Part shown: positions 37,159 through 63,179 of the stretch, in pieces
How the letters are laid out: each line of letters opens with the position of its first letter
How positions within the stretch are numbered: position 1 is the stretch's first letter
Source: Candidatus Omnitrophota bacterium
GTDB lineage: Bacteria; Omnitrophota; Omnitrophia; Omnitrophales; JACQLI01
Assembly (NCBI GenBank): GCA_016179745.1
Contig: JACPCP010000015.1
Span: forward strand, 45,608 to 109,607
Direction: 5' to 3'
DNA length: 64,000 nt
Made by a program: the position numbers and the translations under genes
Notes under the pieces: model-generated
Told to the model about the DNA's origin: nothing
Database searches by the model: none
Seen by the model: the letters and a program-made list of their open reading frames with translations, nothing else

Positions 37159-37665
37159 ATGGAAGCTAAACTTTTCCATGTCGTGGCAATAGCAAAGAAC
37201 CGTGTCATTGGCAAAGACGGCAAGCTGCCCTGGCATTTTTCATCCGACCTCAAACATTTCAAAGAGCTGACGTGGGGGAGCACGGTGGTGATGGGCCGAA
37301 AGACCTTTGAGAGCCTCGGGAAACCGCTTCCCGGCCGGCAAAATTTCGTCCTGACCCACGCAAAAGGGGACAGTCCCCTTTGGGGGGACAGGCAGATGGG
37401 GTTGGGAGGTCCGGGCCCGGTGCGTTTCTTTAGATCCTTGGAAGAGGCCCTGGGTGCCGTCGAAACACCCCATTGCTACATCATCGGCGGCGCGGAAATT
37501 TTTAAGCAAACGATTTCCGGGGTCGACGGGATTTACCTCACCTGCATTGATCAAGAATATAAAGGAGACGCTTCTTACCCGGAGATCCCAGATTGTTTTA
37601 AGGAGATGAAACGGGAAATGCTTCAGGAGAATCCAAAACTCGAAGTGATTTATTATGAGAAGTAA
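37159..37665 (+). CDS. folA: Dihydrofolate reductase, carrying an 11-codon in-frame palindromic-element insertion
   Basis: VIGKDGKLPW, VVMGRKTFESLGKPLPGR and YIIGGAEIF. The loop after NFVLTH is about 13 aa longer than in E. coli DHFR. Confidence 0.9.
   Translation: MEAKLFHVVAIAKNRVIGKDGKLPWHFSSDLKHFKELTWGSTVVMGRKTFESLGKPLPGRQNFVLTHAKGDSPLWGDRQMGLGGPGPVRFFRSLEEALGAVETPHCYIIGGAEIFKQTISGVDGIYLTCIDQEYKGDASYPEIPDCFKEMKREMLQENPKLEVIYYEK
37362..37394 (+). repeat. Palindromic element copy inside folA (AAAAGGGGAC-A-GTCCCCTTT followed by GGGGGGACAGGCA)
   Basis: Read directly. It translates in frame as KGDSPLWGDRQ. Confidence 0.85.
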
Positions 37666-38305: not shown

Positions 38306-38320
38306 GCCGGTATGAAAGGG

Positions 38321-38353
38321 AAAAGGGACAGGCACCTTTTGAGGGGGGCAAAC
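38321..38353 (+). repeat. Intergenic copy of the GGGACAGGCACCTTT element
   Basis: AAAAGGGACAGGCACCTTTTGAGGGGGGCAAAC shares GGGACAGGCACCTTT exactly with 37126-37140. Confidence 0.75.
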
Positions 38354-38518: not shown

Positions 38519-39067
38519 ATGTCCAGAAAAGTCAATCAACACATCGCAAGTCAACTTGCCCTTCGGGAAGATATTGAAGAAATGATCTTCCACATCCGAG
38601 GCCAGAGGGTCATGATTGACCGGGATCTCGCCAGGCTGTACGGGGTTGAGACGAAGCACTTAAACCGGCAGGTCAGACGCAACCGGGAGAGGTTTCCAGA
38701 GGAATTTATGTTCCAGCTGACGGAGGAAGAGCGGGATGAACTGGTGACAAATTGGCACCGGTTGAACCCCTTGAAGCATTCCCCTTCTCTTCCTCATGCT
38801 TTTACGGAAAACGGTGTGGCAATGTTGGCGAGCGTTCTCAATAGTGAGAGGGCCGTGAAAATCAGCATCCACATCGTCAAGACCTTCGTAAAGTTGCGCC
38901 GGTGGGTCGTTACCTATAAGGAACTCGCCTCGAAGCTGAATGAGCTGGAAGCAAGGGTTGAAGACCACGATGAAGAAATTCGCTCTATTTTCGAAGCGCT
39001 TCAAAAGCTGATTAACCCGAGCCGGCCTGAAAAACCCAAGCGTCGGATTGGGTTTCATAAGGAGTAA
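38519..39067 (+). CDS. ORF6N-domain (KilA-N-related) DNA-binding protein, typical of phage or mobile-element cargo
   Basis: IRGQRVMIDRDLARLYGVETKHLNRQVRRNRERFPEEFMFQLT...PHAFTENGVAMLASVLNS. AAGGAGGG RBS, and a TATAAT box at 38421-38426. Confidence 0.75.
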   Translation: MSRKVNQHIASQLALREDIEEMIFHIRGQRVMIDRDLARLYGVETKHLNRQVRRNRERFPEEFMFQLTEEERDELVTNWHRLNPLKHSPSLPHAFTENGVAMLASVLNSERAVKISIHIVKTFVKLRRWVVTYKELASKLNELEARVEDHDEEIRSIFEALQKLINPSRPEKPKRRIGFHKE

Positions 39068-39837: not shown

Positions 39838-39890
39838 AGGGAACAGGCAAACCCTGCTCGTGTAACTGGTTTGCCTGTCCCCTGGATTTT
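39838..39890 (+). terminator. Rho-independent terminator built from the GGGGACAGGCAAACC motif. Its 3' arm also supplies the nuoA -35 box.
   Basis: AGGGAACAGGCAAACC-14 nt-GGTTTGCCTGTCCCCT: a 16-bp stem with 1 mismatch, followed by GGATTTTT. Confidence 0.75.
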
Positions 39891-39900
39891 TAGCTATAAT
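39871..39900 (+). promoter_or_regulatory. nuo promoter (TTGCCT-18-TATAAT)
   Basis: TATAAT lies at 39895-39900 and the first ATG at 39909, with no SD between them. Confidence 0.5.
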
Positions 39901-40253
39901 TGTCTCCCATGTTTGGAATCCTGATTACCTTTGTCCTATCTCTCGCTCTGGCCGGGACTTTCATTGCCTTGGCCGTCGTCCTGGGCCCCAGGCGTCCGGA
40001 CCCGGTGAAGGCCGAGCCGTTCGAATGCGGTGAGGCGCCCTTTTCCCTCCCCGAGGCGAGGCGCCCGGTCCGGTTTTACCTCACGGCCATGCTCTTTGTC
40101 CTGTTTGATGTGGAACTGGTTTTTTTCTTTCCCTGGGCCGTGGTCTATCGCCAGCTCGGGCTCCCCGGTTTTTTTGAAATGCTGGCCTTCCTTTTTTTTC
40201 TCACCCTCGGATTCGCTTACGCCTGGAAAAAGGGAGCCCTCGAATTCAAATGA
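39900..40253 (+). CDS. nuoA: NADH-quinone oxidoreductase subunit A
   Basis: PFECGE motif and three TM helices. The start is either TTG at 39900 or, more likely, ATG at 39909. Confidence 0.9.
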   Translation: MSPMFGILITFVLSLALAGTFIALAVVLGPRRPDPVKAEPFECGEAPFSLPEARRPVRFYLTAMLFVLFDVELVFFFPWAVVYRQLGLPGFFEMLAFLFFLTLGFAYAWKKGALEFK

Positions 40254-40735
40254 ATTCTTTCCAAGAGGACACGCCGAGTTCGCCTGCGGGATTTTTTACC
40301 TCCAAGATCGAAGAAATGGTCGGCTGGGCCCGCAAGTTTTCGATCTTTCAATACCCCTTTGTTACGGCCTGCTGCGGAATGGAATATATGTCCGTGGCCT
40401 GCTCTCACTACGATATCGACCGCTTCGGAGCAGGCCTGCCCCGTTTCTCGCCCCGCCAGTCCGACGTCTTGATGGTGGTCGGGACCATCTCCCACAAGAT
40501 GGCCCCGGTCCTCAAAAAAATTTACGACCAGATGACCGAACCCAAGTGGGTCGTGGCCTTCGGGGTCTGCACTTGCACAGGCGGCTTCTACGACAATTAC
40601 GCCACGGTGATGGGGATCGACACGATCCTTCCCGTGGACGTTTATATCCCCGGCTGTCCGCCGAGGCCCGAGAACGTTTTGGACGGTCTGATGAAATTGC
40701 AGGAAAAAATCCAGAAGCAAAAACAGTTCACTTGA
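40250..40735 (+). CDS. nuoB: NADH-quinone oxidoreductase subunit B
   Basis: ACCGMEYM and GCPPRPE (N2 cluster ligands). ATGA overlap with nuoA. Confidence 0.95.
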   Translation: MNSFQEDTPSSPAGFFTSKIEEMVGWARKFSIFQYPFVTACCGMEYMSVACSHYDIDRFGAGLPRFSPRQSDVLMVVGTISHKMAPVLKKIYDQMTEPKWVVAFGVCTCTGGFYDNYATVMGIDTILPVDVYIPGCPPRPENVLDGLMKLQEKIQKQKQFT

Positions 40736-41220
40736 TGGGAAAGATACTCGACCGGTTAAAAGAGAAGTTGGGCGAGAGCCTTCTCGCCTCGCACGAATTC
40801 CGGGGCGACGAGACCGTGGTCGTCGGGCGGGAGGCATTGCTTGAAGTGACGCGTTTCCTCAAGACCGATTCGGGGCTTGATTTCAATATTCTGATGGACC
40901 TCACGGCCGTTGATTATCTTACCTGGGGCGAAGCCCGGCCCCGCTTCGAAGTCGTTTATCACCTCTACTCTCTTAGCAAGAATCATCGCGTCCGGATTAA
41001 GGTGCCGGTTGAAGAAAAAGATCCCGTCGTTCCGTCGCTGACCACAATTTGGCCCGCCGCCGATTGGTATGAGCGGGAGGTTTGGGACATGTTTGGAATC
41101 CGCTTTCCGGGCCACCCGAACCTCAAACGGATTTTGATGTATGAAGAATTCGCCGGGCATCCGCTTCGGAAAGATTACCCCGTCACGAAACGTCAGCCTC
41201 TGATCGGCCCCAAAAATTAA
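40735..41220 (+). CDS. nuoC: NADH-quinone oxidoreductase subunit C
   Basis: DLTAVDY, WYEREVWDMFGIRFPGHP and PLRKDYP. The start overlaps the nuoB stop. Confidence 0.9.
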   Translation: MGKILDRLKEKLGESLLASHEFRGDETVVVGREALLEVTRFLKTDSGLDFNILMDLTAVDYLTWGEARPRFEVVYHLYSLSKNHRVRIKVPVEEKDPVVPSLTTIWPAADWYEREVWDMFGIRFPGHPNLKRILMYEEFAGHPLRKDYPVTKRQPLIGPKN

Positions 41221-49228: not shown

Positions 49229-49296
49229 TACTTTACTCGTTGTCTCAAAGCTCTTATGAATCAAGCTATCCTGGTCAGGAGTTCCGTCTCCCGGTA

Positions 49297-52200
49297 ATGG
49301 AAGTAAAACCCCGGCGGAGTCAGAAGGGCTTTTACTTTAGACTCACCACCTGGGCTGTTCTCATCACCTTCTCAACCCTCCAGATCGCCTGGGCCCAGGG
49401 GCCCGAAGCCCTCAAGCCGGCTGAAACGATCCGCCAAGCCCCCATCGATCCAAAATCCATTTCTCAGGAAGACTGGAAATCATCTTCCCAGACCGCAAAA
49501 CCGGTGGATCAAAAAACTTCGACCGACTACCTCATGGATGATTTCCCCCTGACTCGGGCGGACAAACAAGAGACCGAAGGCGAAGCGGCCGAGAAACGTG
49601 CCTTGACCCGCCAGACGATCCAATGGGAGAAACCCAGGATCACCTATTATTCCAACGGCAGGAAGAAGTCCTGGCAAAGACGGGGCACTGAGAATGGAAA
49701 GCTGAAGAGGCGTGAACTGAAGACCTATGACCCCCAGGGCAAAATCACCCGGGACCTCGACGAGACCTACCACCCGAATGGAAGGGTCGCAATCTCAGAT
49801 GACCGCCGTTACCTTGCAGGCGTCCTTGACAAACGCACCTACAAGACCTTTAACACACAAGGCCGGTTGACCCGCACTCTTTTCCGGGACTATGACCCCC
49901 ATGAAAAGCTCAGGATCTTGGACGACACCTCTTACACCAATGGCCACAAGACCGGGCGCCACCGGAATGAATACGACAGTTCCGGGATTCGCCTGAGTTA
50001 CCTTCGGGAAACCTTTTTCTCCGGAGAGAGCCTTAAAACTTCGGATAGTTACCGCTATTCGAGTGGCCGGCTCACCCAGAGGACCTACCAGGAACGAGAT
50101 GCTTCAGGAAATCAAATCGTCTCTCAATCCCGCGATTACACCGCCCCCCTCTACACGAATCTTCGGGATTTCGTATTCGAATACGCTGTAGACGGTTCCC
50201 CCTACACAGAGTCTTTCTCATTTACCGCCGAGGGCTCCACCCGGTTCCAGACGACAAAGGCCGGATACCTTGGGGCCGAAGTCAAGCTCGATATTGAAAT
50301 CATCTTTGATGAGACCCCGCCCGGAGCGGGTTCGGTGGCCCTCAGTGGCAATGCCGTTTACTCTCGGTCGGCTTCCGTAAGCCTTACTCTTGAGGTTGAT
50401 GACAACTGGACCACCGATGCCAATATCCAAATGGCCTTCTCCCAGAATGGAGGACAGACCTTTGGCGCCTTCGAAGCCTTCAACACCCAGAAGACACTCG
50501 CTCTTGAAGGCAGTGACGGCACCAAAGAAGTCATCGTCCGTTTCAAAGACGAAGCCGGCAACACCCTCGATGCCACAGACACGATTCACCTCGACCGCGC
50601 AATTCCTACCGGCAGCATCAATATCAATTCGGGGTCTTCTTACACAACCTCCACGGCCGTCACCCTAAATCTGGCTGCCCAGGACTCGGGCTCTGGCATT
50701 GATAAGATGAGTTTCTCCCAGGACAATACGGCTTGGACCGCCCCCGAGGCCTACAACGCCACGAAGAATTTCACTCTTCCTTCAGGAGACGGAACCAAGA
50801 CCCTTCGTGTGAAGTTTTACGATAAAGCCGGAAACGAGAGTCAGGTTTATTCCAAGTCCATCACTTTGGATTCAACCCTTCCTGACGGCTCCATCACAAT
50901 CAATAACAGTAATCTCTACACTTCCTCTCCTACGGTGACTCTTGCCTTGAGCGCCAACGATCCCACTTCAGGGGTTGCCGATATGCGTTTCTCAAACAAT
51001 TTCGGTTTCCAGTGGTCCGACTGGGAGCCTTTTGGCACAAGAAAGGATTGGACCCTTTCCTCTACCAATGGAGAAAGATGGGTTGCTTACGAGGTTCGCG
51101 ATTGGGCCGGCAATATCGCCAGGCTCTATGACTCCATCATCCTAGATACCCTTGCTCCCACTGGCTCCCTCAATATCAATTCAGGGGCCGTTTACACTGG
51201 TACTCCCACCGTGACCTTAAATCTTTCAGCCCAAGACTCGGGTTCCGGGATCGATAAGGTAAGTTTCTCTCAAGACAATACAACCTGGACTGCTCCCGAG
51301 GTCTACAACTCCACAAAGACCTTTACCCTTCCCTCAGGAGACGGGAATAAAACCGTCTACCTCAAGTATTACGACAAGGCAGGGAATGTAAGTGCGGTCT
51401 ATTCCAAATCCATTATTCTGGATACCCTTCCGCCCTCAGGCACGGTGCGGGTCAAGAATAGCGTTCAGTTTGTCAATCAGCGTTTCATTGATCTGGAATT
51501 CTCTGCCAGTGATGCAGGGTCAGGACTTGATTGGGTGAGGGTGTCGAATGACAACTCCACCCTGACCGAGATCCCCTACACGACCCTGGTGCCCGGCTGG
51601 GCTCTCTTGGAACCCGATGGCGTCAAAACCATCTACGTGCAATTTAAGGACAAATTCGGCCGCTGGTCGAGCCTTGTGACGACGACCGTCACATTGGACC
51701 GGGTGAAACCAGGGGTTTCCGCTGCGATCAGCTCAGGAAAGACTTACTCCAATTCGAGCCCGGTCATCGTAAATTTGCTAGCCACAGATGACCGAAGCGC
51801 CGGGACCAAACTACAGATGAGATTTGCAGTCGATGGCACAGCGGAAGGAAGTTTCAATGCCTGGGAGTCTTTGGGATCCCAGAAATCAATCAAGCTTCCA
51901 GAGGTTGACGGCAGCCACACGGTTTTCGCGGAGGTGAGGGATGAAGCCGGGAACATCAACCAAGCCTCAGTTTCCATCACTCTGGACCGGACGGCTCCGA
52001 CCGGTGGAGTCAAAATCAACAACGGGGCAGACCGAACGGGATTGAGAAAGGTCACGCTGACCCTGGATGCCCAGGATGCCTCGACCCAGGTGGAGAAGAT
52101 GCGGATTTCAGAAGACGGCGGGGCGAGCTGGACCCCCTGGCAGGATTTTTCAAACCAGATTGACTGGACTTTCGGGGGGCTTGAAGGGACGAGGGAAATC

Positions 52201-55200
52201 AGGGTCGAAGTAGGGGATTCGGCCGGGAATACCGCAACCTTCTCGGACACCATCGAACTCAACACTTCCATACCCCAGATCGCATTCACCTCCCCCTCCT
52301 CGACGGGTGATTCTCTTTACACCCTCCGCTACAAAGTGGATGGGGTGGAGCGAAGCGAAACCTGGCGTCTCGCCCCGGGGGCGAATCCACTTTTGGTGCG
52401 TGTCTCAGAGGATGGAAGACCACCGGCCTTTGCGAAGTTCACCGTGACACTCAATCAGTCGGAGCCCGCCCGTCCTTTGATGCCGAATGCTCCAACGCTG
52501 GCGGAAGACCTCATTTCAGTGACGACGGAGGGGGGGTTGGTTCTTAAATATGATAATAGCGTCCTCGTGGCCATGGAGAAACCCGGGGAGTATCAACTTT
52601 ATCTGCCGGAAGTGGATGGCAGCGGGAATCTCACAGGCGGATTAGTCCGATTTTCCGAAGGAGGTGAAATCTACTATGGGGACGGAAAAGTCGTTTGGCG
52701 CAAGGACCCTCAACAAAACACCTACTATTACAATCCCGACGGTTCTGTGCGGGAAGTGGCCGGACCGGAGGGACAAAGAAGTGTTTTCTCCTATCGCTTG
52801 GATTCCGAAAATGGCAAGGTCATGGAGACCCTTGTCTCCTCTTCAAAAGACACGAGCCTTTACGATGCCACGGGCCGCCTTCTACTAACCTTGAAAATCA
52901 ATGGGGACGTGGTTCATTACGACGGAGGAATCCTGGATTCAGTTGAGCGAAAAGGTACGGGCGAGGTCCTTCATTACGGCCGCACTGATGACCCCAAGAC
53001 GGGCGAAGTGACCGTGAGTGTTACGGGCTCCGCGACCCCCTTTCAAGAATACCCCTCGAGAGTCCGCTACGACCGCGAGGGCCAAATTCTCGAGGTGGTC
53101 GAGCCGGACGGGACTCAGATAAATTTTAAAGACGGCCTTCCAACCGAAAAAATCGAATTCATTGAAGGCGAAGTCCGTAAAACAAGCTATCAATATAAGA
53201 CGAATCCCCTTGAGGATCTTATCGGTCTCCAGATCTCAGGGACTCAATTGAAGCGGAGCTTCGACGCCCAAGGCAGACTCGGTGCGCTTGAAACCGACGG
53301 CGTTGAATTAAAAATTTCGGGGAACCTGGTGGAATCTCTGACCCTTCTTGAGGGAAGTGAAGGAGGATTTCCCTCGGGCACCACTGTTCGCTACGAAGAG
53401 CGGAATTCGCTCAAGCGGGCCCTTGTCAGTTATCCCGAGCCGGATGCAAGAAAATTAACCTACGAGGTAGAGGAAGGCGGGGATCGGTACACACTTCGTG
53501 AAATCCAGTTGCCAGATGGGACGATTCAGCGGTTTCGTCCGAACGGCAGCCTGGGATCCCTCGAGACTTCGGACGGAAGAATTTATGAATACGAGGCGGC
53601 GCCCGGCGGCGGGCGGTCCTTTTTGAAGGAATGGCGGCTTGCGGACGGCCGCAGGCTTTACTTCAAAAAGAAAAACCCGGATGCCCCGCTTCAATTATTC
53701 CTTGTCGAATTCCCGGATGGGCGGAGGATCGAAAATATCACATTCGACCCGGAGGGGCGCCTCAACCAGGCCGACGAGCGGGTCCCTGAGCGAGGGGCCG
53801 TTTCCTCACATGTGGACCACTATGAATCCGGCCGGCTTGTGAAGCGAAGTTTCCCCGATACGTCCGAGCTCCTTTTTAATGAGGACGGTATTTTTTATTC
53901 CTATCGTGATCCCCGAGGCGAAACCTACCAGGTTCGTGAGGAGAAAGGGCCCCAAAACGAGACGACCGGGTTCCGATTTGAAGGGTCCCGGGAGACGGTT
54001 GTCTATTCCCGGGAAGGCGTTCTGACCCGTTACCTCTCAAACGGGGTTTCATTTGAATTTGACCGGGAAGGAAAGGTTGCTTGGGCCAAGACTGTTTTCG
54101 GAGAAATCCAAAACCCCCTTTGGAATGAGGCCCAGGAACTCATTAGCGGCAGGGTCAGCCTGGCCGATGGATCTCGATATTTCCTGGAGGGTGGAAAGAT
54201 TGCCCGAATTCTTCGGTCCGACGGCTTGGAGATTACTTATACGGGGGACCGTGCCGCCCGGCTTGTCAAAGAGGATACGACACTTTTGCTGGAATATATC
54301 ACTGAGAACACGGGCTTGCTTAAGGGGGCTTTTGTCAGATACGAGACAGAAGGGGGACTTACGAGCGACGGCCTGATTAATTTTCTCATCCGCCCCGAAC
54401 GTGCCGGCGAGGCCGGAGAGGTTTTTGACGCACCGCTTGAAAATCTACTGACCTCCGGGAAAAGCCGGACAAGTGTGGCTGCCGTCCACCGGGTCCCTCT
54501 TGCCCTGGGAGTGGTCGAGCGAGGCAGTGCTTCAAACGGAGGTTGGTGGTTCGAAGTGATATTTGATTCTGCCGAAGTTTCGGAGGGACTTACACCGACC
54601 CTGAGTTTGGCGCCCAACCCTTTTCTCAATCACATGAATCTGGGCTACCAGATTTCGGAATCCGCCTCCGAGCCCCTCAATGATTTGATAAACTTTGGCA
54701 TTGCGGGCAACTTTGTGCTCAATGGCGGCCGGGTTCCGCTTGGGGCCGCCAGCATCGGGTCGAGAAAGGGTTTTCCGCTTAATTATGACGTCTCCCCTCC
54801 AGGAAGCTCAGTGGGTTTTTATGTGTCTTACGATGCGGATTGGATTGAAGGAATCGAAACACGGGATTTCTCAGGTTTGGGAGAGGTTGTTTTAAAAACG
54901 AAGGGGGAACTTGGGACGGTTTTGACGCTTGAGCTGACAGACCGTGAAAACCGACGAAGCCGGATCTTTTTGCGTGGGATTGACAACAGCGAGCGCTTTT
55001 TTAATCTGGATTTTTCCCTTTTTCAAGGTGTTGACATCACTCACATCAAATCGGTCAGCTATATCCTGGAAGGCGACCGGCAGCTTGTAAAGACCGGAAC
55101 GCTGGATATCCAATGGGGCAGCCCTTTCGTTGCTTTATCTCCGCAACCAGAATTGGATTCGACAAGCGGAGTCGAATTGCCGCAATTTCAATGGCTTCAC

Positions 55201-58200
55201 GTAGTGCCCCAAAAGTATCCTGCCTATCCCCAGGGTGTCTCGGATAAATTCGTAACCACTCGATCGTCCGATTCCGAGATGGAATTTCATTTCGAAGGGG
55301 CATCGGATTATTACACGGCTTCCGCCGTCTTTGATTACGATCTTGCGAATACGAAAGACGTGGTGGAATACAAGGACCTTTCAGCCTTTGCGGGTCTTCT
55401 GCTGGGAAGCGAGAGAGCGGTCGAAGGGATCAACTTTTTTTCGATTCAGGATGCACATGGGAACCGGGCCCGTGTGAGGTTGTTCGGCAACGCCGGGACC
55501 CCCAATTTTTATTTCTTGGATCTGGATAAGATGGGCATCGATCTCAGGCGGGTCCGTTCCCTGGCGTTTGTCTACAATGATCCAAAGGTGGAAGACGGAC
55601 GGGTATGGCTCCGTGGGATTCCCCGTGAGGGCCCCGTCCCCTTCCCAGCCGTAAATCCCGATACGGATGAGCTTGCCATTCTCGCCGACGAGACCGTGAC
55701 GGTGGCTGTGAACCCGGGCGAACTTGTCCGATCCGATTATCTTAGCGTGAGCATTCGGCCTCCTCCGGGCGTGGTTGATTCAAAGGCCGTGCTAACTCTC
55801 GGTGAGGCCGTCTATCGAACAGAAACCCTATCAGACGATTGGAGCCACCTGGTAATTCCCCTCGCCAAATTTTCCGGGGCGCAGGCCGATTCTCTTCAGA
55901 TTTCCTTTGAAGGAAGCACAAGAGAGGGAAGCTACTTGATCGACAATCTCGTTTTAATGCGTTTCCAGGATAATTCGGCATCAACCCTTTTGCCCAAACT
56001 CAGGGTGACAGCCGAATCCCTTTCGCAAGGGGAGAGAACTCACCTTCCGGATCTGGCGAAACTCTCAGCCTCTTTCGTCTCCGAGTTTTCCGGGCGCAAT
56101 GAAACACCGGCTCGGATCCATTCCGAACTCGGAGCCTTGACGAGTGTCGTGACCGACATTTTTTATGATTCCAATGGCCAGATCAAAGAGGTAAAGACCG
56201 GTGATGGAAAAACTCTCGTGATGGCCGAGGAAGGGCTCCAGCAGGCTTTGTTCAGTCAGGGAGTGACCGTTGATTACGGATCCGGCCCAGGAAACGAACC
56301 TCAATCCTTGACGGTTGCGGGCCCCGGAGGAAATCAAGCCCCTCTTTCGGCGAGCTATCAATACGGACGTATCCGGGAAGTGAGGCGTTCGGACGGCTCC
56401 CGCCTTCAATATGGATACGAATTCATAGACGGGGCCGAAATCACGGTCGTCAAGACACCGCTTGGGACGGAGCCTGAGACCTATGAGATCAAGCGCTATC
56501 ACCGAGATCCCGGGAACCCTTATCAGATCGGCCAGCTCTTGTCGGTCGAAGAACCCACCGGCCTTCTGACGGTCTATGAGTATGGAGCCGGGTCCGGAGG
56601 TCCCGAGGCGCCGCTTAAGCTAAGCCGGACTTATTACAAGGGGCGGTTGCGTTCGGAATTTAGTTACGAGTATCGGGAAGGCCGGACGTTTGTGACCGAT
56701 CAAGAGGGCACGGTCACGGAGTATGATTCTGATGGCCGACTTCGTTCCCACACGACGCCGGATGGTTTCCGCTACGAGCATCTCTTCGAAGATGAAAACT
56801 TTCGGGTGATTGACGGCCGAAGTTACCTTAACGGGAAACTCATCCGCCTTGAAACGGAGGGTTTCACCATTGAAGAAGCAGTGACCGACTCAGAAGGTTT
56901 CCTCACAGAGGCCCTGCTTCTTTACCAGGATGGTCACCGGACATTTTTCGTGAAGGGAGCCCCCTACCTGACCACCCGGGATGTTGGAGAAGCCACCTTC
57001 TTTGATCCGGCTAAGGACGGCGAAAACCCAGGCTTTCAAAACGAAATGTCCAATTTTCGGCTCGCTCAAACGCTCTGGAAGGGTGCCCCCAAGAGTCCAG
57101 CGGCAGAGATCCTGCCGGAAAAAGTTGAGGTGGTTCGGCTTGTTTCGAGGGAGTCGGACGAGATAAGCGCGGAATACCGCGAAGGGAGACTCGAGGACCT
57201 TCGGTTTAAGGAAGATGGAATGGAGGTGACGGGCCTTTCCTATGACCGAGACGGGGAGCTCGATGGAGCCCGGATCAAACTGGACGACGGAACCGGATTT
57301 CTGTTCCAAGAAGGGCTTCATGTTATCCGGAGCCGCTCAAATGAGGTCGTCGAGCGCCTCACCCCGTGGGATCCCCCCCTGGCCTACCGAAATGAATCCG
57401 AACGCTGGGAACGTTTAAAGATGCAGTCTGCGACTTTTGTCCGGAGCCCCGATGAGACCGGCCGCTCCAAGAAAACGGATCTCGGAATGGCCCTTTACGA
57501 TGAAACAGGCCGTATCCTTGAAATCCATTTGAGGGCGGAAGGAGTCATTCTAAGGGATTTCGAATTTAACGACCGGGGAAAACTGGTGCGGGCCAAAGTT
57601 TTTTCCGGAGGAGAGGAAACGACTGAATACCGCGAGGGTTTATCCCTTTCCTACCAGGGGGGCGACGGAAGGCCTGGGAAAGTCTTTTCCCTGTTTGACG
57701 AGGGCAACTTCCATTATGAATCGGCGAGGAGCCGTTGGAAAGTTTGGAAGGAAAAGATATCAGAGTATCTCCTGGACCCGGCTTTTGTGTTTGAGACCGA
57801 GCTCGATAGCGAGGGCATGATCCTCACCCTCACCAAAGCGAACCAATCCGTTTCAGTCTATGAAAAAGGAAAAGTTGACCAGGTTTTCGATCAGGAAGGA
57901 AGGCTCCTGATTACAAACCGGTACGACCCCCTCGAGGGAATGCTCATTTCCATCACGATGGTGGATGCCCGCAGGCGGCTTGAGGAAGACACCTTTGAGG
58001 CCCGGCGCGACCTCCGGAGGCAAAAGGTCCTGGCGCTTGAGAAATTGGCCCGCGATACGGATCTGGCCACGCAGGCGCTCCGGGACCAATTTGAGGGACC
58101 ACGGAAAATTCTTCTGGCTCAGCGCGCCAATGTGGAGTCACTTTTGGCGAACCTTGAGGCAACCAAAGTGCGCGGCAAGCAGGGGAAACGGGAGAAATCG

Positions 58201-61194
58201 GGCGCCTTGGATCAGATCCGGGGAGCGCTTCACCAGATCGAGAGCGCCCTTTCCGAACTCGACCGTAAGTATGCAGAAGCGATTGAATCCCTCTCCCAAA
58301 AAGCCGCAGAGGTTGCGAGCCAGATTGAGTCCGAGACTGGGCGGGCGCTCCAAAAGCTTGAAAAAACAAGGGCGGATTATCTGGCCGAAATCTTAAGGCA
58401 GGAGATCGCTCCGGTCCTGCATGACCTTTACCGGAATGCCCTGGGCCGTGACCCGGGCGAAGAAGAGACCCGCGAAGCCATCCGTGAAAAGGAGACCGGA
58501 ACCTTTGATTCCCACACCCTCCGGGCGAAACTCCTTAGAAGCGCGGAATACCAAGCCCGTCTTGACGAGGTGAATCGGATTCGAGAGGGAGTCCGAGAAA
58601 CACTCGCGCTCTACCTCGCGGGCCGTTATTCTGCGACGGACGAGCTTGGTCTCACTGAGAAGGAAGTGGTTTCACTCACTTCCGAGGAAGCTGACCAAAT
58701 TCTTCAGTGGCTGGATGGCCACGATCTTCATTTTGGACATTCGGCCTTTCTAGCGATGGAGAGTCTGCTCCGGGATGAGGGGAGAAATGTCTCCCTTCGG
58801 GAACTCGCTGCCCGGGCGATTTTAATCGACATCTTTTCCGGTGTGATCGGTCCTTTTGAGGAAGGGGAGCTTAAACTGAGCCTCTTTGCCTTGGAACGGA
58901 CCGCCCGATTTTACGGGGTAACGTTCTATCCCGCTGAAGTCAGTTATGAGGAACTGAGACAAATGGTTCTGGGCGGCAAGAAAGTAATGGTCCATCTGAA
59001 AGGGGATCACTACACGGTGATTACCGGCTTTGAGACGGTCTCGGAAACCCAAGTTCTTTGTCAGGACGGCCGGCCGGTCGAGATTCAGGTTCCGGTGGAA
59101 AAGGTGAAGACCCTGGAGCGGAATAAGGGGGCGGCGGGAGAAGAAGTGGTGCTCACGAAGGAGCAATTCCTCGATGCCTGGCTTCAGGGTGAAGGAGAAA
59201 AGGGATTTGTCCTCTCGGCCGTCGCGGCCGATCCCCGAGGGACCGGGACGGTTCTGACCCAGGAAAAGGCCCAATCCGTCCGGGGCGCCTTCTTTTTCTT
59301 TATTCCTTTTATCATCTCAGTCCTTGTTTCGGTCATTCAGGCGGTGATTGCGGTGGTGATTGCTGTGGTGGCCGCTGTGGTGGCTGCCGTGAGTGCCGTG
59401 ATCTCAGCCGTGGTCGGGGCCATCTCCAATTTGGTGACGACTCTGGGGCGGGGCCTGAGCTATTTGGCCCGGGGTTTCCAAGCGGTGGGGAAATTCCTTT
59501 TCGAAGGGGTTCGGGACGTAGGGAAACTTCTCTTAAAGGGCCTCCAGTTTGTCGGCTCCAGGCTTTACCAGGGATTTCAGGCGGTGGGCCATTTCCTGAA
59601 AGAAGCAGCTCTCAACTTGGGAGGAAAGCTCTGGCAGGGGATGGAGAAGATCGCTACGAAGCTCGCCCAGGGATTCACCAAGCTCTTCTCAAAGCAGGAC
59701 CTGACCAAACTTTTTTCAGTCAAGGGCGGGGCCACCAGCTTCAAGACAAGCCTCCTTAAGAATGCCCTGGGCTACGGCCTTAATTTCTCCCTTTCCAAGG
59801 GATTGGATTCGTTAGGGATTGATTTCCCAGGTCTCAATCTTCTTACCTCCTTTGTGACCGGAGGGATTGCCGGATTAACCGACAATGCCTCTTCCACGAG
59901 CTTCTTTACAAGTGCCCTCAAGAAGCTCACCCTCACGGGTCTTTCCACCCTGGCTCTCCACCTCGATCTCCCGCCTCCCATCGCCAACGCGATTTCTCTT
60001 GTTGGTGCCACCCTCGTAGGTGCCACGCTTGACCCTTCCGTTACTGTCCCCGAAGCCCTGAAAGACCTTGCCCCCACCCTTACCCGTGACTTGACCTTCC
60101 AGGGAATTCTTTCTGTCGGAGAAGCCATTGGTCTTGATCCCCGCTTATCAGCATTGATCGGCATTCCGATTAGGGCAACTGTTGGCAGTATCACAGGGAA
60201 TGCCTTGGGGGTGAAGGGGTACGAGGACCTCTTCGGAGAAATTACGAGTCAAACTATCGGTGGCCTTGTTTCTGTCGGCTCAAGCATTGGTTTGAATGCT
60301 GTTGGTGCCTCGCCCATTCTCCAAAGCTTCCTTCCAAGTTTCTTGGGTAACTTTGTTGCGGGTTTTGGTGGTACACCCGGTGGGTCTGATGCTATCCAAC
60401 GAGAAGGCGAAAACATCTTTAAGAAAATTACAGATGGCATTATTAAGTTTGGAAAGGGCCTTGCCTCCGCAGTCGGAAATGTCACATCCTTCGGCACAAA
60501 GGTTATTGAAGGTGGAGTTAACCTAGTGAAGCAGGGATTCGCTAAGGCGGTGGATTTCTTCAGCGGCGTATTTGACCGGCGGACGCAAGAAGCTTTGATC
60601 CAGGCTGGGGGCGGTAACATCGAGCAGGCCATCCTCAATAATGCAACGATTGTTAATGGAACCGCCAGAGCGTCCATCGATGGCGTTGAAATCGTTTGGG
60701 ATTCTGCGTTAGATAAGCTGACCTATACTGGTCCGGCGGGTGTAAGCGCGGCATTTTCCAAATTGGTTATGGACACAACTGGGAATTTCGGGATGGGGGA
60801 TTTTGCCTATGCTGAAACTACGCAAAACAGTGCAGTCATCAACTTAACTTCTAAAAAGTCTTACATTGAAGCTTCGGTTACGATGGACGATAAGCGCATT
60901 GTGGTTGAGTCCTTGGGCGGACGAGACCTTGTGAGCCGAACGTTGGGTCCATTTGTAAGGCCTACAGTTGTATTTGAGAGCACAGCGGCAGAGAATAATT
61001 ATCAAATTAAAGTAGATATGGAAAAAGGTGGTTTGACAGAAGTAAAAGCACCTTGGGAATATGTGACAGCAATTAAAGATTTCTTCACGCAGGGGGCTTT
61101 TAAGAGTATCGTTCAAGAGTATTTGAAAGACCAAATCGAGGATTTATTAACACCAATTTTTGAAAAGTTAGACGAAATTTTGAGAAGAAAATGA
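49297..61194 (+). CDS. Giant secreted/membrane-anchored multidomain protein (~3,965 aa)
   Basis: Single uninterrupted 11.9-kb ORF. The ATG at 49297 gives a signal peptide (KPRRSQK, then LTTWAVLITFSTLQIAWA|QG). Domain order:
- YD/MORN-like hairpin repeats (about 49640-50130, 52560-54400, 56150-57700)
- seven Ig-like repeats
- three CBM-like modules
- a coiled coil (about 57960-58400)
- a DUF4214-like motif (LYRNALGRDPGEEE)
- a C39/papain-like domain
- a TM hairpin
- 11-mer repeats
- a Gly/Leu/Ser-rich tail. Confidence 0.85.
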   Translation: MEVKPRRSQKGFYFRLTTWAVLITFSTLQIAWAQGPEALKPAETIRQAPIDPKSISQEDWKSSSQTAKPVDQKTSTDYLMDDFPLTRADKQETEGEAAEKRALTRQTIQWEKPRITYYSNGRKKSWQRRGTENGKLKRRELKTYDPQGKITRDLDETYHPNGRVAISDDRRYLAGVLDKRTYKTFNTQGRLTRTLFRDYDPHEKLRILDDTSYTNGHKTGRHRNEYDSSGIRLSYLRETFFSGESLKTSDSYRYSSGRLTQRTYQERDASGNQIVSQSRDYTAPLYTNLRDFVFEYAVDGSPYTESFSFTAEGSTRFQTTKAGYLGAEVKLDIEIIFDETPPGAGSVALSGNAVYSRSASVSLTLEVDDNWTTDANIQMAFSQNGGQTFGAFEAFNTQKTLALEGSDGTKEVIVRFKDEAGNTLDATDTIHLDRAIPTGSININSGSSYTTSTAVTLNLAAQDSGSGIDKMSFSQDNTAWTAPEAYNATKNFTLPSGDGTKTLRVKFYDKAGNESQVYSKSITLDSTLPDGSITINNSNLYTSSPTVTLALSANDPTSGVADMRFSNNFGFQWSDWEPFGTRKDWTLSSTNGERWVAYEVRDWAGNIARLYDSIILDTLAPTGSLNINSGAVYTGTPTVTLNLSAQDSGSGIDKVSFSQDNTTWTAPEVYNSTKTFTLPSGDGNKTVYLKYYDKAGNVSAVYSKSIILDTLPPSGTVRVKNSVQFVNQRFIDLEFSASDAGSGLDWVRVSNDNSTLTEIPYTTLVPGWALLEPDGVKTIYVQFKDKFGRWSSLVTTTVTLDRVKPGVSAAISSGKTYSNSSPVIVNLLATDDRSAGTKLQMRFAVDGTAEGSFNAWESLGSQKSIKLPEVDGSHTVFAEVRDEAGNINQASVSITLDRTAPTGGVKINNGADRTGLRKVTLTLDAQDASTQVEKMRISEDGGASWTPWQDFSNQIDWTFGGLEGTREIRVEVGDSAGNTATFSDTIELNTSIPQIAFTSPSSTGDSLYTLRYKVDGVERSETWRLAPGANPLLVRVSEDGRPPAFAKFTVTLNQSEPARPLMPNAPTLAEDLISVTTEGGLVLKYDNSVLVAMEKPGEYQLYLPEVDGSGNLTGGLVRFSEGGEIYYGDGKVVWRKDPQQNTYYYNPDGSVREVAGPEGQRSVFSYRLDSENGKVMETLVSSSKDTSLYDATGRLLLTLKINGDVVHYDGGILDSVERKGTGEVLHYGRTDDPKTGEVTVSVTGSATPFQEYPSRVRYDREGQILEVVEPDGTQINFKDGLPTEKIEFIEGEVRKTSYQYKTNPLEDLIGLQISGTQLKRSFDAQGRLGALETDGVELKISGNLVESLTLLEGSEGGFPSGTTVRYEERNSLKRALVSYPEPDARKLTYEVEEGGDRYTLREIQLPDGTIQRFRPNGSLGSLETSDGRIYEYEAAPGGGRSFLKEWRLADGRRLYFKKKNPDAPLQLFLVEFPDGRRIENITFDPEGRLNQADERVPERGAVSSHVDHYESGRLVKRSFPDTSELLFNEDGIFYSYRDPRGETYQVREEKGPQNETTGFRFEGSRETVVYSREGVLTRYLSNGVSFEFDREGKVAWAKTVFGEIQNPLWNEAQELISGRVSLADGSRYFLEGGKIARILRSDGLEITYTGDRAARLVKEDTTLLLEYITENTGLLKGAFVRYETEGGLTSDGLINFLIRPERAGEAGEVFDAPLENLLTSGKSRTSVAAVHRVPLALGVVERGSASNGGWWFEVIFDSAEVSEGLTPTLSLAPNPFLNHMNLGYQISESASEPLNDLINFGIAGNFVLNGGRVPLGAASIGSRKGFPLNYDVSPPGSSVGFYVSYDADWIEGIETRDFSGLGEVVLKTKGELGTVLTLELTDRENRRSRIFLRGIDNSERFFNLDFSLFQGVDITHIKSVSYILEGDRQLVKTGTLDIQWGSPFVALSPQPELDSTSGVELPQFQWLHVVPQKYPAYPQGVSDKFVTTRSSDSEMEFHFEGASDYYTASAVFDYDLANTKDVVEYKDLSAFAGLLLGSERAVEGINFFSIQDAHGNRARVRLFGNAGTPNFYFLDLDKMGIDLRRVRSLAFVYNDPKVEDGRVWLRGIPREGPVPFPAVNPDTDELAILADETVTVAVNPGELVRSDYLSVSIRPPPGVVDSKAVLTLGEAVYRTETLSDDWSHLVIPLAKFSGAQADSLQISFEGSTREGSYLIDNLVLMRFQDNSASTLLPKLRVTAESLSQGERTHLPDLAKLSASFVSEFSGRNETPARIHSELGALTSVVTDIFYDSNGQIKEVKTGDGKTLVMAEEGLQQALFSQGVTVDYGSGPGNEPQSLTVAGPGGNQAPLSASYQYGRIREVRRSDGSRLQYGYEFIDGAEITVVKTPLGTEPETYEIKRYHRDPGNPYQIGQLLSVEEPTGLLTVYEYGAGSGGPEAPLKLSRTYYKGRLRSEFSYEYREGRTFVTDQEGTVTEYDSDGRLRSHTTPDGFRYEHLFEDENFRVIDGRSYLNGKLIRLETEGFTIEEAVTDSEGFLTEALLLYQDGHRTFFVKGAPYLTTRDVGEATFFDPAKDGENPGFQNEMSNFRLAQTLWKGAPKSPAAEILPEKVEVVRLVSRESDEISAEYREGRLEDLRFKEDGMEVTGLSYDRDGELDGARIKLDDGTGFLFQEGLHVIRSRSNEVVERLTPWDPPLAYRNESERWERLKMQSATFVRSPDETGRSKKTDLGMALYDETGRILEIHLRAEGVILRDFEFNDRGKLVRAKVFSGGEETTEYREGLSLSYQGGDGRPGKVFSLFDEGNFHYESARSRWKVWKEKISEYLLDPAFVFETELDSEGMILTLTKANQSVSVYEKGKVDQVFDQEGRLLITNRYDPLEGMLISITMVDARRRLEEDTFEARRDLRRQKVLALEKLARDTDLATQALRDQFEGPRKILLAQRANVESLLANLEATKVRGKQGKREKSGALDQIRGALHQIESALSELDRKYAEAIESLSQKAAEVASQIESETGRALQKLEKTRADYLAEILRQEIAPVLHDLYRNALGRDPGEEETREAIREKETGTFDSHTLRAKLLRSAEYQARLDEVNRIREGVRETLALYLAGRYSATDELGLTEKEVVSLTSEEADQILQWLDGHDLHFGHSAFLAMESLLRDEGRNVSLRELAARAILIDIFSGVIGPFEEGELKLSLFALERTARFYGVTFYPAEVSYEELRQMVLGGKKVMVHLKGDHYTVITGFETVSETQVLCQDGRPVEIQVPVEKVKTLERNKGAAGEEVVLTKEQFLDAWLQGEGEKGFVLSAVAADPRGTGTVLTQEKAQSVRGAFFFFIPFIISVLVSVIQAVIAVVIAVVAAVVAAVSAVISAVVGAISNLVTTLGRGLSYLARGFQAVGKFLFEGVRDVGKLLLKGLQFVGSRLYQGFQAVGHFLKEAALNLGGKLWQGMEKIATKLAQGFTKLFSKQDLTKLFSVKGGATSFKTSLLKNALGYGLNFSLSKGLDSLGIDFPGLNLLTSFVTGGIAGLTDNASSTSFFTSALKKLTLTGLSTLALHLDLPPPIANAISLVGATLVGATLDPSVTVPEALKDLAPTLTRDLTFQGILSVGEAIGLDPRLSALIGIPIRATVGSITGNALGVKGYEDLFGEITSQTIGGLVSVGSSIGLNAVGASPILQSFLPSFLGNFVAGFGGTPGGSDAIQREGENIFKKITDGIIKFGKGLASAVGNVTSFGTKVIEGGVNLVKQGFAKAVDFFSGVFDRRTQEALIQAGGGNIEQAILNNATIVNGTARASIDGVEIVWDSALDKLTYTGPAGVSAAFSKLVMDTTGNFGMGDFAYAETTQNSAVINLTSKKSYIEASVTMDDKRIVVESLGGRDLVSRTLGPFVRPTVVFESTAAENNYQIKVDMEKGGLTEVKAPWEYVTAIKDFFTQGAFKSIVQEYLKDQIEDLLTPIFEKLDEILRRK
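50311..52263 (+). repeat. Seven tandem ~92-aa Ig-like domain repeats within the giant ORF
   Basis: Recurring pattern P(T/D/S)G.I.IN.G..YT....V.L.L.A.D..SG...M.FS......W...E.....K.W.L....G.K.V.V...D.AGN. Units 2 (50599-50874) and 4 (51151-51426) are about 75% identical at the aa level. Confidence 0.8.
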
Positions 61195-61736
61195 AAAAGA
61201 TTTTCAGTTTTCTTGCTATTGTATTTCTCCTTGTCATTACAGCTGTATTTGTATTTTCTGATTATCTCTCTGGTAATTTCACAAGTTATAAGATCCCTCT
61301 TGATTCTATGGCACCAACGATAAGCACCAACGACTTAATAGCAGTTGCTACTGGAGCATATGAAAAGACCCTACCAATGAGAGGTGATATTATCGTTTTT
61401 ATAACACCGTTTGATGAAAAAAAGAAATTCGCTAAAAGAATAGTTGGTTTGCCCGGTGATAAAGTTGAGATTAAAGAAGGTAAGGTTTACGTAAATGGGA
61501 AACGAATTCAATCTGATAGATTTCCAGATAATCGATATTATTTAACTCATGGAGATTGGGACTATGGGAATGAAGGCCAAATCATAGATGTGCCGGACAA
61601 TATGTATTATGTGTTGGGCGATAAGAGTGCGCATTCCAGTGATAGCAGGCAATGGGGATTTGTTCCCGCTAAAAACGTAATTGGTAAAGCAACAGTTGTT
61701 TATTGGCCGCCTTGGCGATGGAAATTTATAAAATAA
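61191..61736 (+). CDS. lepB: Type I signal peptidase (S26 family, short Gram-positive-like form)
   Basis: N-terminal TM, SMAPTI (Ser nucleophile box), GDIIVF, KRIVGLPGD (Lys box) and GDKSAHSSDSRQWGFV. ATGA overlap with the giant ORF stop. Confidence 0.88.
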   Translation: MKKIFSFLAIVFLLVITAVFVFSDYLSGNFTSYKIPLDSMAPTISTNDLIAVATGAYEKTLPMRGDIIVFITPFDEKKKFAKRIVGLPGDKVEIKEGKVYVNGKRIQSDRFPDNRYYLTHGDWDYGNEGQIIDVPDNMYYVLGDKSAHSSDSRQWGFVPAKNVIGKATVVYWPPWRWKFIK

Positions 61737-61784: not shown

Positions 61785-62034
61785 ACGGGTACCACATTAC
61801 CGCCTCTCCAATGATCCGGGTCTTGTAAGGGTGAGCGAGTTTGACTTCCACTTCCCATCTTTGAAGTAAACCCACGATCCGATACCCGCTGCAGATCACC
61901 TCCAGAGTGGCTTTAATTTTCCCTTCCCAGTGCTTGAGGTAAAGCGTAAAATGCCCCGGCTCGCTGGAAAGGTTCCATTGCTTCCACGCTTGACCCGTTT
62001 CATCTAGGAATATCCCTGCGAGAAAGATCAACAA
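61783..62034 (-). CDS. Hypothetical small protein (~83 aa)
   Basis: This is the C-terminal part of ORF 61783-62223. I chose the TTG at 62034 because the upstream part would overlap dapF antisense. It has its own terminator. No family was recognised. Confidence 0.3.
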   Translation of the reverse strand: MLIFLAGIFLDETGQAWKQWNLSSEPGHFTLYLKHWEGKIKATLEVICSGYRIVGLLQRWEVEVKLAHPYKTRIIGEAVMWYP

Positions 62035-62444
62035 TGAAAGAAATTTCCTTTTATAAAATGGCGGCGTCGGGGAACGATTTTGTGGTGATCGACAACCGTG
62101 CCCGGAAAGTTTCAAATTTGCCGGCCCTGACCCGGGCCGTTTGCGACCGGCACCGGGGCGTGGGGGCTGACGGGGTCCTCTTGCTCGAACCCTTAGCGAA
62201 GGAAAAAGGGGACGGCCCCCCAAAAAGGGGACAGTCCCCTTTTTCTTCGAAGAAGGCCGATTTCCGGGTCCGGATTTTTAATTCGGACGGTTCGGAAGCG
62301 GAAGCCTGCGGCAACGGATTTCGCTGTGCGGCCTTGTTTGCGAAGGAAAAATTGGGGCTTCCCAACCGGCAGCAATTTGAGTCTCTCTCCGGAATGATTC
62401 ATAGTAAAAACGGTAGCATTTCCAAAAGTGCCGGGTTGAGGTAA
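62034..62444 (+). pseudogene. dapF: Diaminopimelate epimerase, 5' ~45% only. It is truncated at a RAYT element and carries an in-frame palindromic-element insertion.
   Basis: SGNDFVVID, RHRGVGADGVLLLEP and DFRVRIFNSDGSEAEACGNG (first catalytic Cys). Homology ends at about FESLSGMIH. The frame then runs into the left inverted repeat and stops. Confidence 0.8.
62203..62244 (+). repeat. Palindromic element copy inside dapF (AAAAAGGGGACGGCCCCCC, then the perfect palindrome AAAAAGGGGAC-A-GTCCCCTTTTT)
   Basis: Read directly. It translates in frame as EKGDGPPKRGQSPFS. Confidence 0.85.
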
Positions 62445-63179
62445 AATCTCCCCGTAGTTTTTTAACTCTCAATCTCACAGGGTTGTGGCGGACACGTAAA
62501 AATCAGGCACAGCCGATTCACCCTCCTTTGAAATATAAAAAGGAGGACCCCATGCCCCGCAAACCAAGGGAACTTGTCAATGAAGGAATCTACCACCTCT
62601 TCAACCGTGGTAATGACCGAAGGAACCTTTTTCAGGAGGCCCCGGATTTTCACCATTTTCTCAGCCTGCTTTTGCAAGCGGCAAAGAAATACCCTTCGGA
62701 GATCTTCCATTACTGTCTGATGACCAACCACTTTCACCTCCTGGTCCGGATTGCCCGGGGAGAAGATCTGCCTCCCTTCATGCATCTGGTCCAGCTCGGC
62801 TATGCCCGTTACTTCAAGAAGAAATACGGCTTCGTCGGTCATGTCTTCCAGGAAAGATTCCGCAGCCCACGTATCCCCGAAGAAAGCTACTACCTCCAGT
62901 GCGGCCGTTACATTGAGAGAAACCCCGTCTCAGCCCGCCTGGTCAAGGATCCCTGGGACTACCCCTATTCCAGCGCCCCTTTTTATGCCTCCGGAGAAAC
63001 CGATCCTTTAGTTACCCCGAATCTTTATTACGAGGGGATGGCGACCGACAGTGAAGAGCGGAGGCGGCGCTATCGGGAATTTCTCTCAGCCGAGGAGCCT
63101 TACGCCGGGATGATTGACAAGGCACTGGTTAAGGTCTGAACGTGGAAACTGTTGAACCCGGCACTTTTGGAAATGCTAC
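62413..63179 (+). mobile_element. RAYT/IS200-like unit: a Y1 transposase gene bracketed by perfect 25-bp inverted repeats (REP-like)
   Basis: The left repeat GTAGCATTTCCAAAAGTGCCGGGTT (62413-62437) is the exact reverse complement of 63155-63179. Each 25-mer can itself form a 6-bp hairpin. Confidence 0.8.
62552..63139 (+). CDS. REP-associated tyrosine transposase (Y1 HUH, IS200/IS605 TnpA-like)
   Basis: AGGAGG RBS 5 nt before the ATG at 62552. YHLFNRGNDRRNLF, CLMTNHFHLLV (the HUH motif is HFH), and GYARYFKKKYGFVGHVFQERFRS. Confidence 0.85.
   Translation: MPRKPRELVNEGIYHLFNRGNDRRNLFQEAPDFHHFLSLLLQAAKKYPSEIFHYCLMTNHFHLLVRIARGEDLPPFMHLVQLGYARYFKKKYGFVGHVFQERFRSPRIPEESYYLQCGRYIERNPVSARLVKDPWDYPYSSAPFYASGETDPLVTPNLYYEGMATDSEERRRRYREFLSAEEPYAGMIDKALVKV

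Follow-up and report, generated by a model that had tools for sequence, protein, structure and literature searches.

In the REP/REPIN-RAYT systems (Nunvar 2010; Bertels & Rainey 2011; Ton-Hoang 2012), repetitive extragenic palindromic (REP) sequences and REPINs flank genes encoding Y1 transposases, the REP-associated tyrosine transposases (RAYTs). Classical REPs number in the hundreds per genome. The present work concerns a short palindromic repeat lying in frame in a dapF gene fragment of a Candidatus Omnitrophota bacterium, at positions 62203-62244 of a stretch of 64,000 nucleotides (assembly GCA_016179745.1, contig JACPCP010000015.1), which is called here the window; all repeat counts for the source genome cover these 64 kb only. 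The name TIRYT was given by Di Nocera et al. (2013) to tyrosine transposases whose genes lie between inverted repeats with the common motif GGGGWSAS (PMC3733652). Some of these terminal inverted repeats (TIRs) are self-complementary and form moderately abundant families, found as single units, dimers or clusters. In the same study, REPs located inside known open reading frames (ORFs) were often dimers encoding 20-30 amino acids, sometimes present twice per gene and apparently tolerated by the host protein. The highest numbers of these intragenic REPs came from Opitutus terrae and Rickettsia conorii, and many intragenic REPs were located in DNA replication and repair genes. Additional roles of REPs in terminating transcription and stabilising mRNA were also proposed (PMC3733652). 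Quentin et al. (2018) assigned the TIRYTs to TnpAY1 subclass 2.1, with the same consensus and a reported C-terminal helix-turn-helix (HTH) domain (PMC6006769).

We report that the dapF element is inserted DNA, that it is copied in other genomes, and that this type of repeat is linked to Y1 transposases. The element is probably a doublet of a self-complementary repeat that carries the GGGGWSAS tag and falls in the REP/TIR class, which goes with Y1 (HUH) transposases of the RAYT/TIRYT type. In-frame REP insertions having already been described, the dapF element most likely adds to a known class.

The dapF element is inserted DNA

The first-pass annotation of this DNA had noticed, in frame in the dapF ORF, a perfect palindrome of 23 nt directly behind a 19-nt segment, a description that both the sequence and its translation confirm (units 1 and 2 in Table 1). 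The palindrome of unit 2 consists of two 11-nt arms, 100% complementary, around a single central base. The number of 23-nt palindromes of this kind expected from shuffles of the window is 0.00, and the sole other match to the 23-mer in the window, at 37361-37383 in folA, has 3 mismatches. The mark of the element is GGGG[A/T][C/G]A[C/G], here GGGGACAG at 62227-62234, placed between an A-run and a T-run and fitting the published GGGGWSAS motif. Units 1 and 2 are direct repeats of one 19-nt unit and also pair with each other (inverted repeat I3), because the 19-nt unit is itself palindromic.

In the translated ORF, the conserved LLLEP is followed by the inserted residues and then by SKKADFRVRIFNSDGSE. 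Compared with the solved DapF structure PDB 9mro, 21 residues stand in place of 4, between two conserved strands. Conservation of the insertion in relatives, which had been named as an argument against an inserted element, was not observed: in an alignment of 25 sequences, 23 of the 24 other DapF homologues have no counterpart to it. The closest of them (P0002, contig L121) is 95% identical at the DNA level over the 160 nt upstream and lacks exactly the 54 nt of the insertion.

The 66-nt stretch around both units folds into a single long hairpin, with -20.5 kcal/mol for DNA folding (z -4.4) and -32.5 kcal/mol for RNA folding (z -3.5); significance was judged against 200 shuffles, none of which folded as well. 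The palindrome had been noted to contain no stop codon in the frames used here, and this extends to all six frames of both the 54-mer and the 23-mer, a property achieved by 1.2% and 2.8% of composition-matched shuffles, respectively. Each frame of the element encodes a Lys/Arg-Gly-x-x-Pro-Phe/Leu peptide. No convincing target-site duplication was found at the 54-nt insert: GCGAAGGAA and TCGAAGAAG are only partly alike, and their likeness is confounded with the palindrome. A search of the whole window against Rfam gave no match at gathering score.

The second in-frame copy of the window lies in folA, which is full-length (Pfam DHFR_1, residues 5-160) and shows a 12-residue gap opposite the insert when aligned to the dihydrofolate reductase 1zdr. 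The two genes share a 20-nt core in different frames, read GGA-CAG-TCC-CCT (G-Q-S-P) in dapF and GGG-GAC-AGT-CCC (G-D-S-P, at 37366) in folA. The repeated entity is therefore the DNA and not a peptide, as the first-pass annotation had concluded, and the use of all three sense frames in a miaB gene described below agrees with this. The first-pass annotation had suggested an abundant element; the evidence on this from the source genome consists of five repeat loci in the 64 kb, three of them doublets. The perfect core occurs only twice, in dapF and folA, and three further sites carry the variant GGGGACAGGCA or GGGACAGGCA, as does the second unit of the folA insert; GGGGACAGGCA has 4 occurrences in the window. 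Beyond the dapF copy, GGGG[AT][CG]A[CG] is found within the repeats at 37125, 37143, 37366, 37384 and, on the minus strand, 39882.

The statement that two housekeeping genes carry the element holds for folA; for dapF, which had been treated as intact, it concerns a 136-aa N-terminal fragment. Solved DapF structures have 274-317 aa, the homology here covers the N-terminal DAP_epimerase domain only and ends near residue 123, and the final ~10 codons of the ORF run, from 62413, into a transposase cassette. The C-terminal half was not found in the window, and no DapF continuation was seen after 63179. The product of the ORF is 100% identical to NCBI HYU34_03830 from Candidatus Omnitrophica. Upstream, the lysA-dapF gene order of the related contigs L121 and L122 is missing, and no similarity to L121 was detected ahead of the dapF start codon; the fragment looks mosaic or relocated. 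It is probably non-functional. Since dapF is already truncated, it says little for selection that the frame stays open through the insert, the tolerance of coding sequence that had been read from this copy finds little support in it, and the dapF copy alone is a minor instance.

The repeat in other genomes and beside Y1 transposase genes

When one genome per species was scanned for AAAGGGGACNGTCCCCTTT, at least 120 loci from many phyla were obtained, with 141 copies among the matches listed, to which the following figures refer. They come, among others, from another Omnitrophota metagenome-assembled genome (MAG) and from the isolates Thermophilibacter provencensis, Gordonibacter sp. 28C and Thalassospira lucentensis. 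The centre base was A or T in 140 of the 141 copies, and the flanks often lengthened the palindrome with locus-specific bases. Several single genomes carried the exact 19-mer 3-6 times, which cannot be chance. Long open frames contained 34% of the copies, compared with 80% of random sites. By crude gene calls, the centre base showed no preferred orientation with respect to the neighbouring genes (27 versus 21).

Further intragenic copies, which the first-pass annotation had proposed to tabulate genome-wide, do exist in frame, and they were found in other genomes. In an Omnitrophota contig (L016, JAUSED010000009.1), the otherwise conserved miaB-type gene at 4052-5380 (E 6e-75 to PDB 7mjz) carries three in-frame composite inserts located in alignment gaps, two of which share an identical 46 nt; all three frames are used, the units being read GTVP, GQSP and GDSP. 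Here again, no convincing target-site duplication accompanied the inserts. All six GGGGACAGTCCCC units of this 8-kb block lie in miaB, within the three inserts, and none is intergenic there. In the hypF gene of an Aminicenantaceae MAG (L039, 3688-6183), a palindrome doublet lies inside the HypF_C_2 domain; the same gene also has a second, low-complexity insert (…AEKGGERRSERSGGRNEGRSADWFGERSTDRSGERTRAKN…). In all verified intragenic copies the A-centred strand is the coding one, from which no claim is drawn at n=6 insertions only. An exact 19-mer was also seen in a methionyl-tRNA synthetase-like ORF of a Planctomycetales MAG (L067, position 6536), where it is read AAEKRGLSPLA. This segment looks native to the synthetase rather than inserted; the match may have arisen by chance, or the copy may be an old one that has been assimilated. 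A search with the concatenated peptide encoded by the element returned 2 proteins only and was too insensitive.

The first-pass annotation mentioned neither the published repeat class nor the Y1 transposase gene found 300 nt downstream of the dapF element. This gene lies in the 767-bp cassette at 62413-63179, bounded by perfect 25-nt inverted repeats and starting ~170 nt past the insertion, inside the dapF frame. Its product has the HUH motif (NHFHLL) and the catalytic Tyr (RYIERNP) of the IS200/IS605 type, as TIRYT transposases do, and H60, H62 and Y120 are invariant in the alignment. Against the NCBIfam model NF047646 (REP-associated tyrosine transposase, REP_Tyr_transpos) it scores 67.4 bits, below the cut-off of 80, and its homologues at loci L007, L086 and L105 score above it, at 82-90 bits. 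In the 400 nt upstream of the transposase gene the motif occurs in forward orientation only once, as the dapF palindrome at -325, which may stand in a cis relation to the gene.

Two samples connect the repeat to such genes. Among the at least 120 loci selected by the palindrome, homologues of the window transposase occur in 4 (L002, L007, L086 and L105; Table 1), and in all four of these no more than ~125 nt separate the palindrome from one or both ends of the transposase gene. The second, reverse sample consisted of 80 metagenome loci picked by the transposase protein and not by the palindrome. Within 250 nt upstream of these genes, GGGG[AT][CG]A[CG] was present in forward orientation at 41 of 80 loci and in reverse at 8 of 80, and the density of the upstream forward motif was 2.64 per kb versus a background of 0.134 per kb (~20-fold). 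A mirror bias was observed downstream, with the reverse motif at 18 of 66 loci and the forward one at 4 of 66. Flanking inverted repeats were detected in 53 of 70 testable protein-selected genes, their left arms reading (A/T-run)GGGG[A/T]CAG..., for example GGGGACAGGCTAC, GGGGACAGACCAC, GGGGACGGTTCT and GGGGTCAGACTCC. The window variant GGGGACAGGCA(CC) closely resembles the arms GGGGACAGGCTAC and GGGACAGGCA at the transposase genes of L180, L191, L198 and L238; arms of related sequence, reading GTAGCCTGTCCC(C), are present in L172, L180 and L191.

Comparison with described systems and weighing of explanations

The closest likeness is to the TIRs of TIRYTs (TIRtrons): the palindrome carrying GGGGACAG occurs in doublets and flanks Y1 genes in four MAGs, and the motif was re-derived from the 80 protein-selected loci. 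Several features differ. The transposase gene of the window has other inverted repeats, the element is minimal, with a 13-nt core whose two half-sites abut, and in-frame copies of this repeat type are not among the intragenic REP peptides in the supplementary text files of PMC3733652. GQSP, GDSP, GTVP, GLSP, GDCP and GGGGAC were not found in these files, which include the table of REP-encoded amino acids. In the literature searched, the exact 13-mer was met only in an unrelated paper on a human gene, and no bacterial context was found for it. Unlike TnpAY1 subclass 2.1, the window transposase has no detectable C-terminal HTH domain. With the REP/REPIN-RAYT systems the repeat shares short palindromes, often in inverted doublets that form a longer hairpin, a linkage to a Y1 gene, and a location mostly between genes and downstream of ORFs. 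By contrast, the classical 5' tag GTAG (or CGTC) is absent from 62203-62244, and the window protein falls below the family cut-off given above.

As with intragenic REPs and Rickettsia palindromic elements (RPEs), the repeats are palindromic, often dimeric and in frame in genes for known proteins, here the dapF fragment, folA, the three miaB sites and hypF. The sequence family, the host phyla (Omnitrophota, Aminicenantes) and the host genes dapF, folA, miaB and hypF differ from those described, and the inserts are shorter (12-18 aa versus ~20-30 aa). The classic RPE-1 elements measure ~100-150 nt, compared with 19-23 nt for the unit studied here. Nor does the insertion resemble a miniature inverted-repeat transposable element, which would have 70-300 bp, terminal inverted repeats and a target-site duplication; here 54 nt were inserted, with no clear duplication.

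Under the preferred REP/TIR reading, the single-stranded unit would fold into a hairpin that a Y1 transposase would recognise and cut, and copies would be pasted elsewhere without target duplication, most of them settling between genes. An intragenic copy would survive only if its length were a multiple of three, if it were free of stops and if it fell in a surface loop; the element would pass this coding filter easily because it is open in six frames and encodes Lys/Arg-Gly-x-x-Pro-Phe/Leu turns. The dapF gene would then have been hit twice, by the 54-nt doublet entering a loop with the frame kept and, separately, by the 767-bp cassette, which together with a further rearrangement would have removed its C-terminal half.

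Several results weigh against this reading. The exact palindrome was found beside none of the 80 protein-selected transposase genes, so that the link is carried by the 8-nt motif and by the four palindrome-selected loci. The window transposase is itself flanked by the other 25-nt repeat (GTAGCATTTCC...), which is devoid of the motif, and the dapF palindrome has no partner downstream of the gene. In the window as a whole AGGGGWSAS is not enriched (7 found, 6.0 expected). Transposition of such elements by TIRYTs is without experimental demonstration (PMC3733652, PMC6006769). The specificity control was a scan of viral contigs with the real palindrome and three control palindromes of like shape and other tips. 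The real one (GGGGACNGTCCCC core) was found at 3 loci, and the controls GGGGCANTGCCCC, GGGGTCNGACCCC and GGGGAGNCTCCCC at 27, 15 and 2, respectively. Two controls were thus at least as common as the real palindrome, also A/T-centred and usually placed after stop codons; the 15-locus control GGGGTCWGACCCC fits GGGGWSAS and the 27-locus control GGGGCAWTGCCCC does not. The viral controls indicate that hairpins of such shape are common and that the wide spread of the 19-mer is unremarkable by itself; this cross-phylum spread may partly reflect convergent terminator-like hairpins. The view that the at least 120 cross-phylum matches are extraordinary in themselves was accordingly dropped, and the association with transposases was used instead.

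These same controls feed the main rival, according to which the element is a generic terminator-like hairpin (A-run, G-rich stem, C-rich stem, T-run) that recurs by convergence together with slippage or template switching, the intragenic copies being local duplications and the neighbouring transposase a coincidence. Like intrinsic (Rho-independent) terminators, the element has a G+C-rich stem between an A-run and a T-run. Many of the 141 listed copies directly succeed a stop codon and have a T-run behind them; the copies are depleted from long open frames, and convergent (27) and co-directional (48) gene pairs are favoured over divergent ones (12), counts that rest on crude gene calls. The tandem units with a period of 18-20 nt are as slippage would produce them, and unit 1 was called terminator-like on the minus strand. 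However, the dapF copy lies inside an ORF, it belongs to a copied family rather than being a locus-specific hairpin, and its plus-strand palindrome, with a one-base centre where a terminator loop has at least 3 nt, was not called by the terminator scan. Slippage does not account for the presence of the same 46-nt composite at two different places in one gene, nor does a terminator-like origin account for palindromes flanking transposase genes in four unrelated genomes or for the orientation-specific enrichment of the motif beside such genes. We regard this explanation as unlikely, though the viral controls and the tandem periodicity leave it some weight. It also overlaps with the REP/TIR reading and is partly compatible with it, REPs themselves having been proposed to act in termination (PMC3733652).

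Two other explanations fare worse. In DapF and FolA the inserted peptide (…KGDGPPKRGQSPF…) might itself have been selected, perhaps as a loop for binding or localisation, with the DNA palindrome as a by-product, and the insert is indeed in frame and in a loop in both proteins. Yet the shared DNA gives GQSP in one and GDSP in the other, miaB uses all three frames, orthologues lack the insert, the same DNA is also intergenic, and dapF is truncated; on account of the frame differences this view is refuted for practical purposes and scarcely credible. An assembly or sequencing artefact has in its favour that the source is a MAG, that the dapF locus is rearranged and that the related contigs L121 and L122 break near dapF. 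It is very improbable nonetheless, given that the same core is present in many independent assemblies, including isolate genomes, and that the 54 nt form a clean in-frame addition within well-aligned coding sequence.

Features of the locus, its relatives and meaning for the phylum

The coordinates are collected in Table 1. The 25-nt cassette repeats start with GTAG followed by an imperfect hairpin (GCATTT-CCAA-AAGTGC), as in classical REPs, and have no further copies in the window.

Table 1. Repeat units and associated genes in the window, and palindromes at four transposase loci of other genomes
Feature	Position	Strand	Remarks
Unit 1, degenerate 19-nt repeat unit AAAAAGGGGACGGCCCCCC	62203-62221	+	Direct repeat D10; 89% identity with unit 2 at 19-nt spacing
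Unit 2, perfect 23-nt palindrome AAAAAGGGGACAGTCCCCTTTTT = AAAAAGGGGAC-A-GTCCCCTTTTT	62222-62244	+	Inverted repeat I20
In-frame insertion, 54 nt / 18 codons	62193..62246 (boundaries +/- few nt)	+	Encodes LAKEKGDGPPKRGQSPFS after LLLEP in DapF loop; gap versus L121
Long hairpin, whole insertion plus flank CTTCG	62197..62249	+	DNA and RNA folding
Truncated dapF ORF, 136 aa	62034..62444	+	Pfam PF01678 DAP_epimerase, residues 6-123, E 9e-24
Left 25-nt terminal inverted repeat GTAGCATTTCCAAAAGTGCCGGGTT	62413..62437	+	Inverted repeat I1, 100% complementary; inside dapF frame
Y1 (HUH) tyrosine transposase gene, RAYT/TIRYT-like, 195 aa	62552..63139	+	Pfam Y1_Tnp, E 2e-11
Right 25-nt terminal inverted repeat	63155..63179	-	Partner of left repeat
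folA copy, AAAAGGGGACAGTCCCCTTT, then degenerate unit GGGGGGACAGGCAGATGG (second unit 37384)	37361..37400	+	Adds ~12 aa
Intergenic thyA/folA, GTCCCC-GCA-GGGGAC, then GGGGACAGGCACCTTTA, GGGGGACAGGCAAAA	37116..37160	+	18-nt period
Intergenic single unit GAAAAGGGACAGGCACCTTTTG	38320..38341	+	Between ORFs 37655-38305 and 38519-39067
Intergenic single unit AAAAATCCAGGGGACAGGCAAACC	39865..39892	-	Between ORFs 39137-39832 and 40030-41220
L002 (Planctomycetota MAG)			Palindrome on both sides; inner inverted pair GAAAAGCGAGTGTCCCCTTTTT + complement
L007 (Nitrospira MAG)			Palindrome on both sides of transposase gene
L086 (Gammaproteobacteria MAG)			Perfect copy downstream; upstream copy minus one G
L105 (Nitrospirae MAG)			Palindrome upstream of transposase gene

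A related DapF sequence from an Omnitrophota-like contig (P0006; L122, JGI Ga0209399_10006185, 4877-4930) carries in this loop another palindromic insert, likewise in frame but of different sequence. The insert, CCCCCTCACCC..CCCTCTCCC-CTCAA-GGGAGAGGG..GGGTGAGGGGG at the DNA level, encodes PHPRPSPLKGEGKGEG and forms a nested palindrome (CCCTCACCC/GGGTGAGGG and CCCTCTCCC/GGGAGAGGG); the DapF loop therefore accepts such inserts repeatedly. The dapF gene is also short in L121 (5215-5460, 81 aa) and in L122 (4721-5035, 104 aa), interrupted at different points, and both contigs end ~120-260 nt past the break, which may mean that repeated or mobile DNA lies in dapF there too, or that dapF decays in this clade. 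The identity of the window fragment to L121 is 95% before the insert (62034-62193, 160 nt) versus 79% after it (62251-62327, 77 nt).

Elsewhere in the window, the fragment is preceded by a single ORF of 3984 aa (49240-61194) and a signal peptidase I gene (61191-61736). One intergenic unit adjoins a gene for an ORF6N/phage Rha-like regulatory protein (38519-39067), which may be a sign of mobile DNA near thyA-folA. A candidate copy at site 467, AAAAAGGGGGACAAGGCCCCC, was rejected, as it encodes the native KKGDKAPSF of a peroxiredoxin-type AhpC/TSA protein. In the viral and prophage contigs, the control AAAGGGGTCWGACCCCTTT, which fits GGGGWSAS, was multi-copy in a few cases (L153-L167, e.g. IMGVR_UViG_2596583602_000001), one contig of 37 kb having as many as 6 copies, and some copies standing in tandem.

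A broader proposal, possible if rather doubtful, is that GGGGWSAS self-complementary mini-palindromes constitute one cross-phylum, Y1-driven family that is dense in the housekeeping genes of Omnitrophota and Aminicenantes, a free-living counterpart of the RPEs with a six-frame-open, loop-forming sequence, the DapF loop having been hit independently by different palindromes. Most documented cases of in-frame colonisation of genes have so far come from Rickettsia, Opitutus and a few Proteobacteria. If confirmed genome-wide, the present findings would add to them, for REP-like repeats, a candidate phylum whose genomes are small and densely packed, and a poorly studied branch of the TIRYTs would gain a concrete and very small candidate substrate with a 13-nt core. 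The inserts add Gly/Pro-rich loops of 12-18 residues to enzymes and make strong mRNA hairpins, and gene calling as well as annotation by homology can be misled by them.

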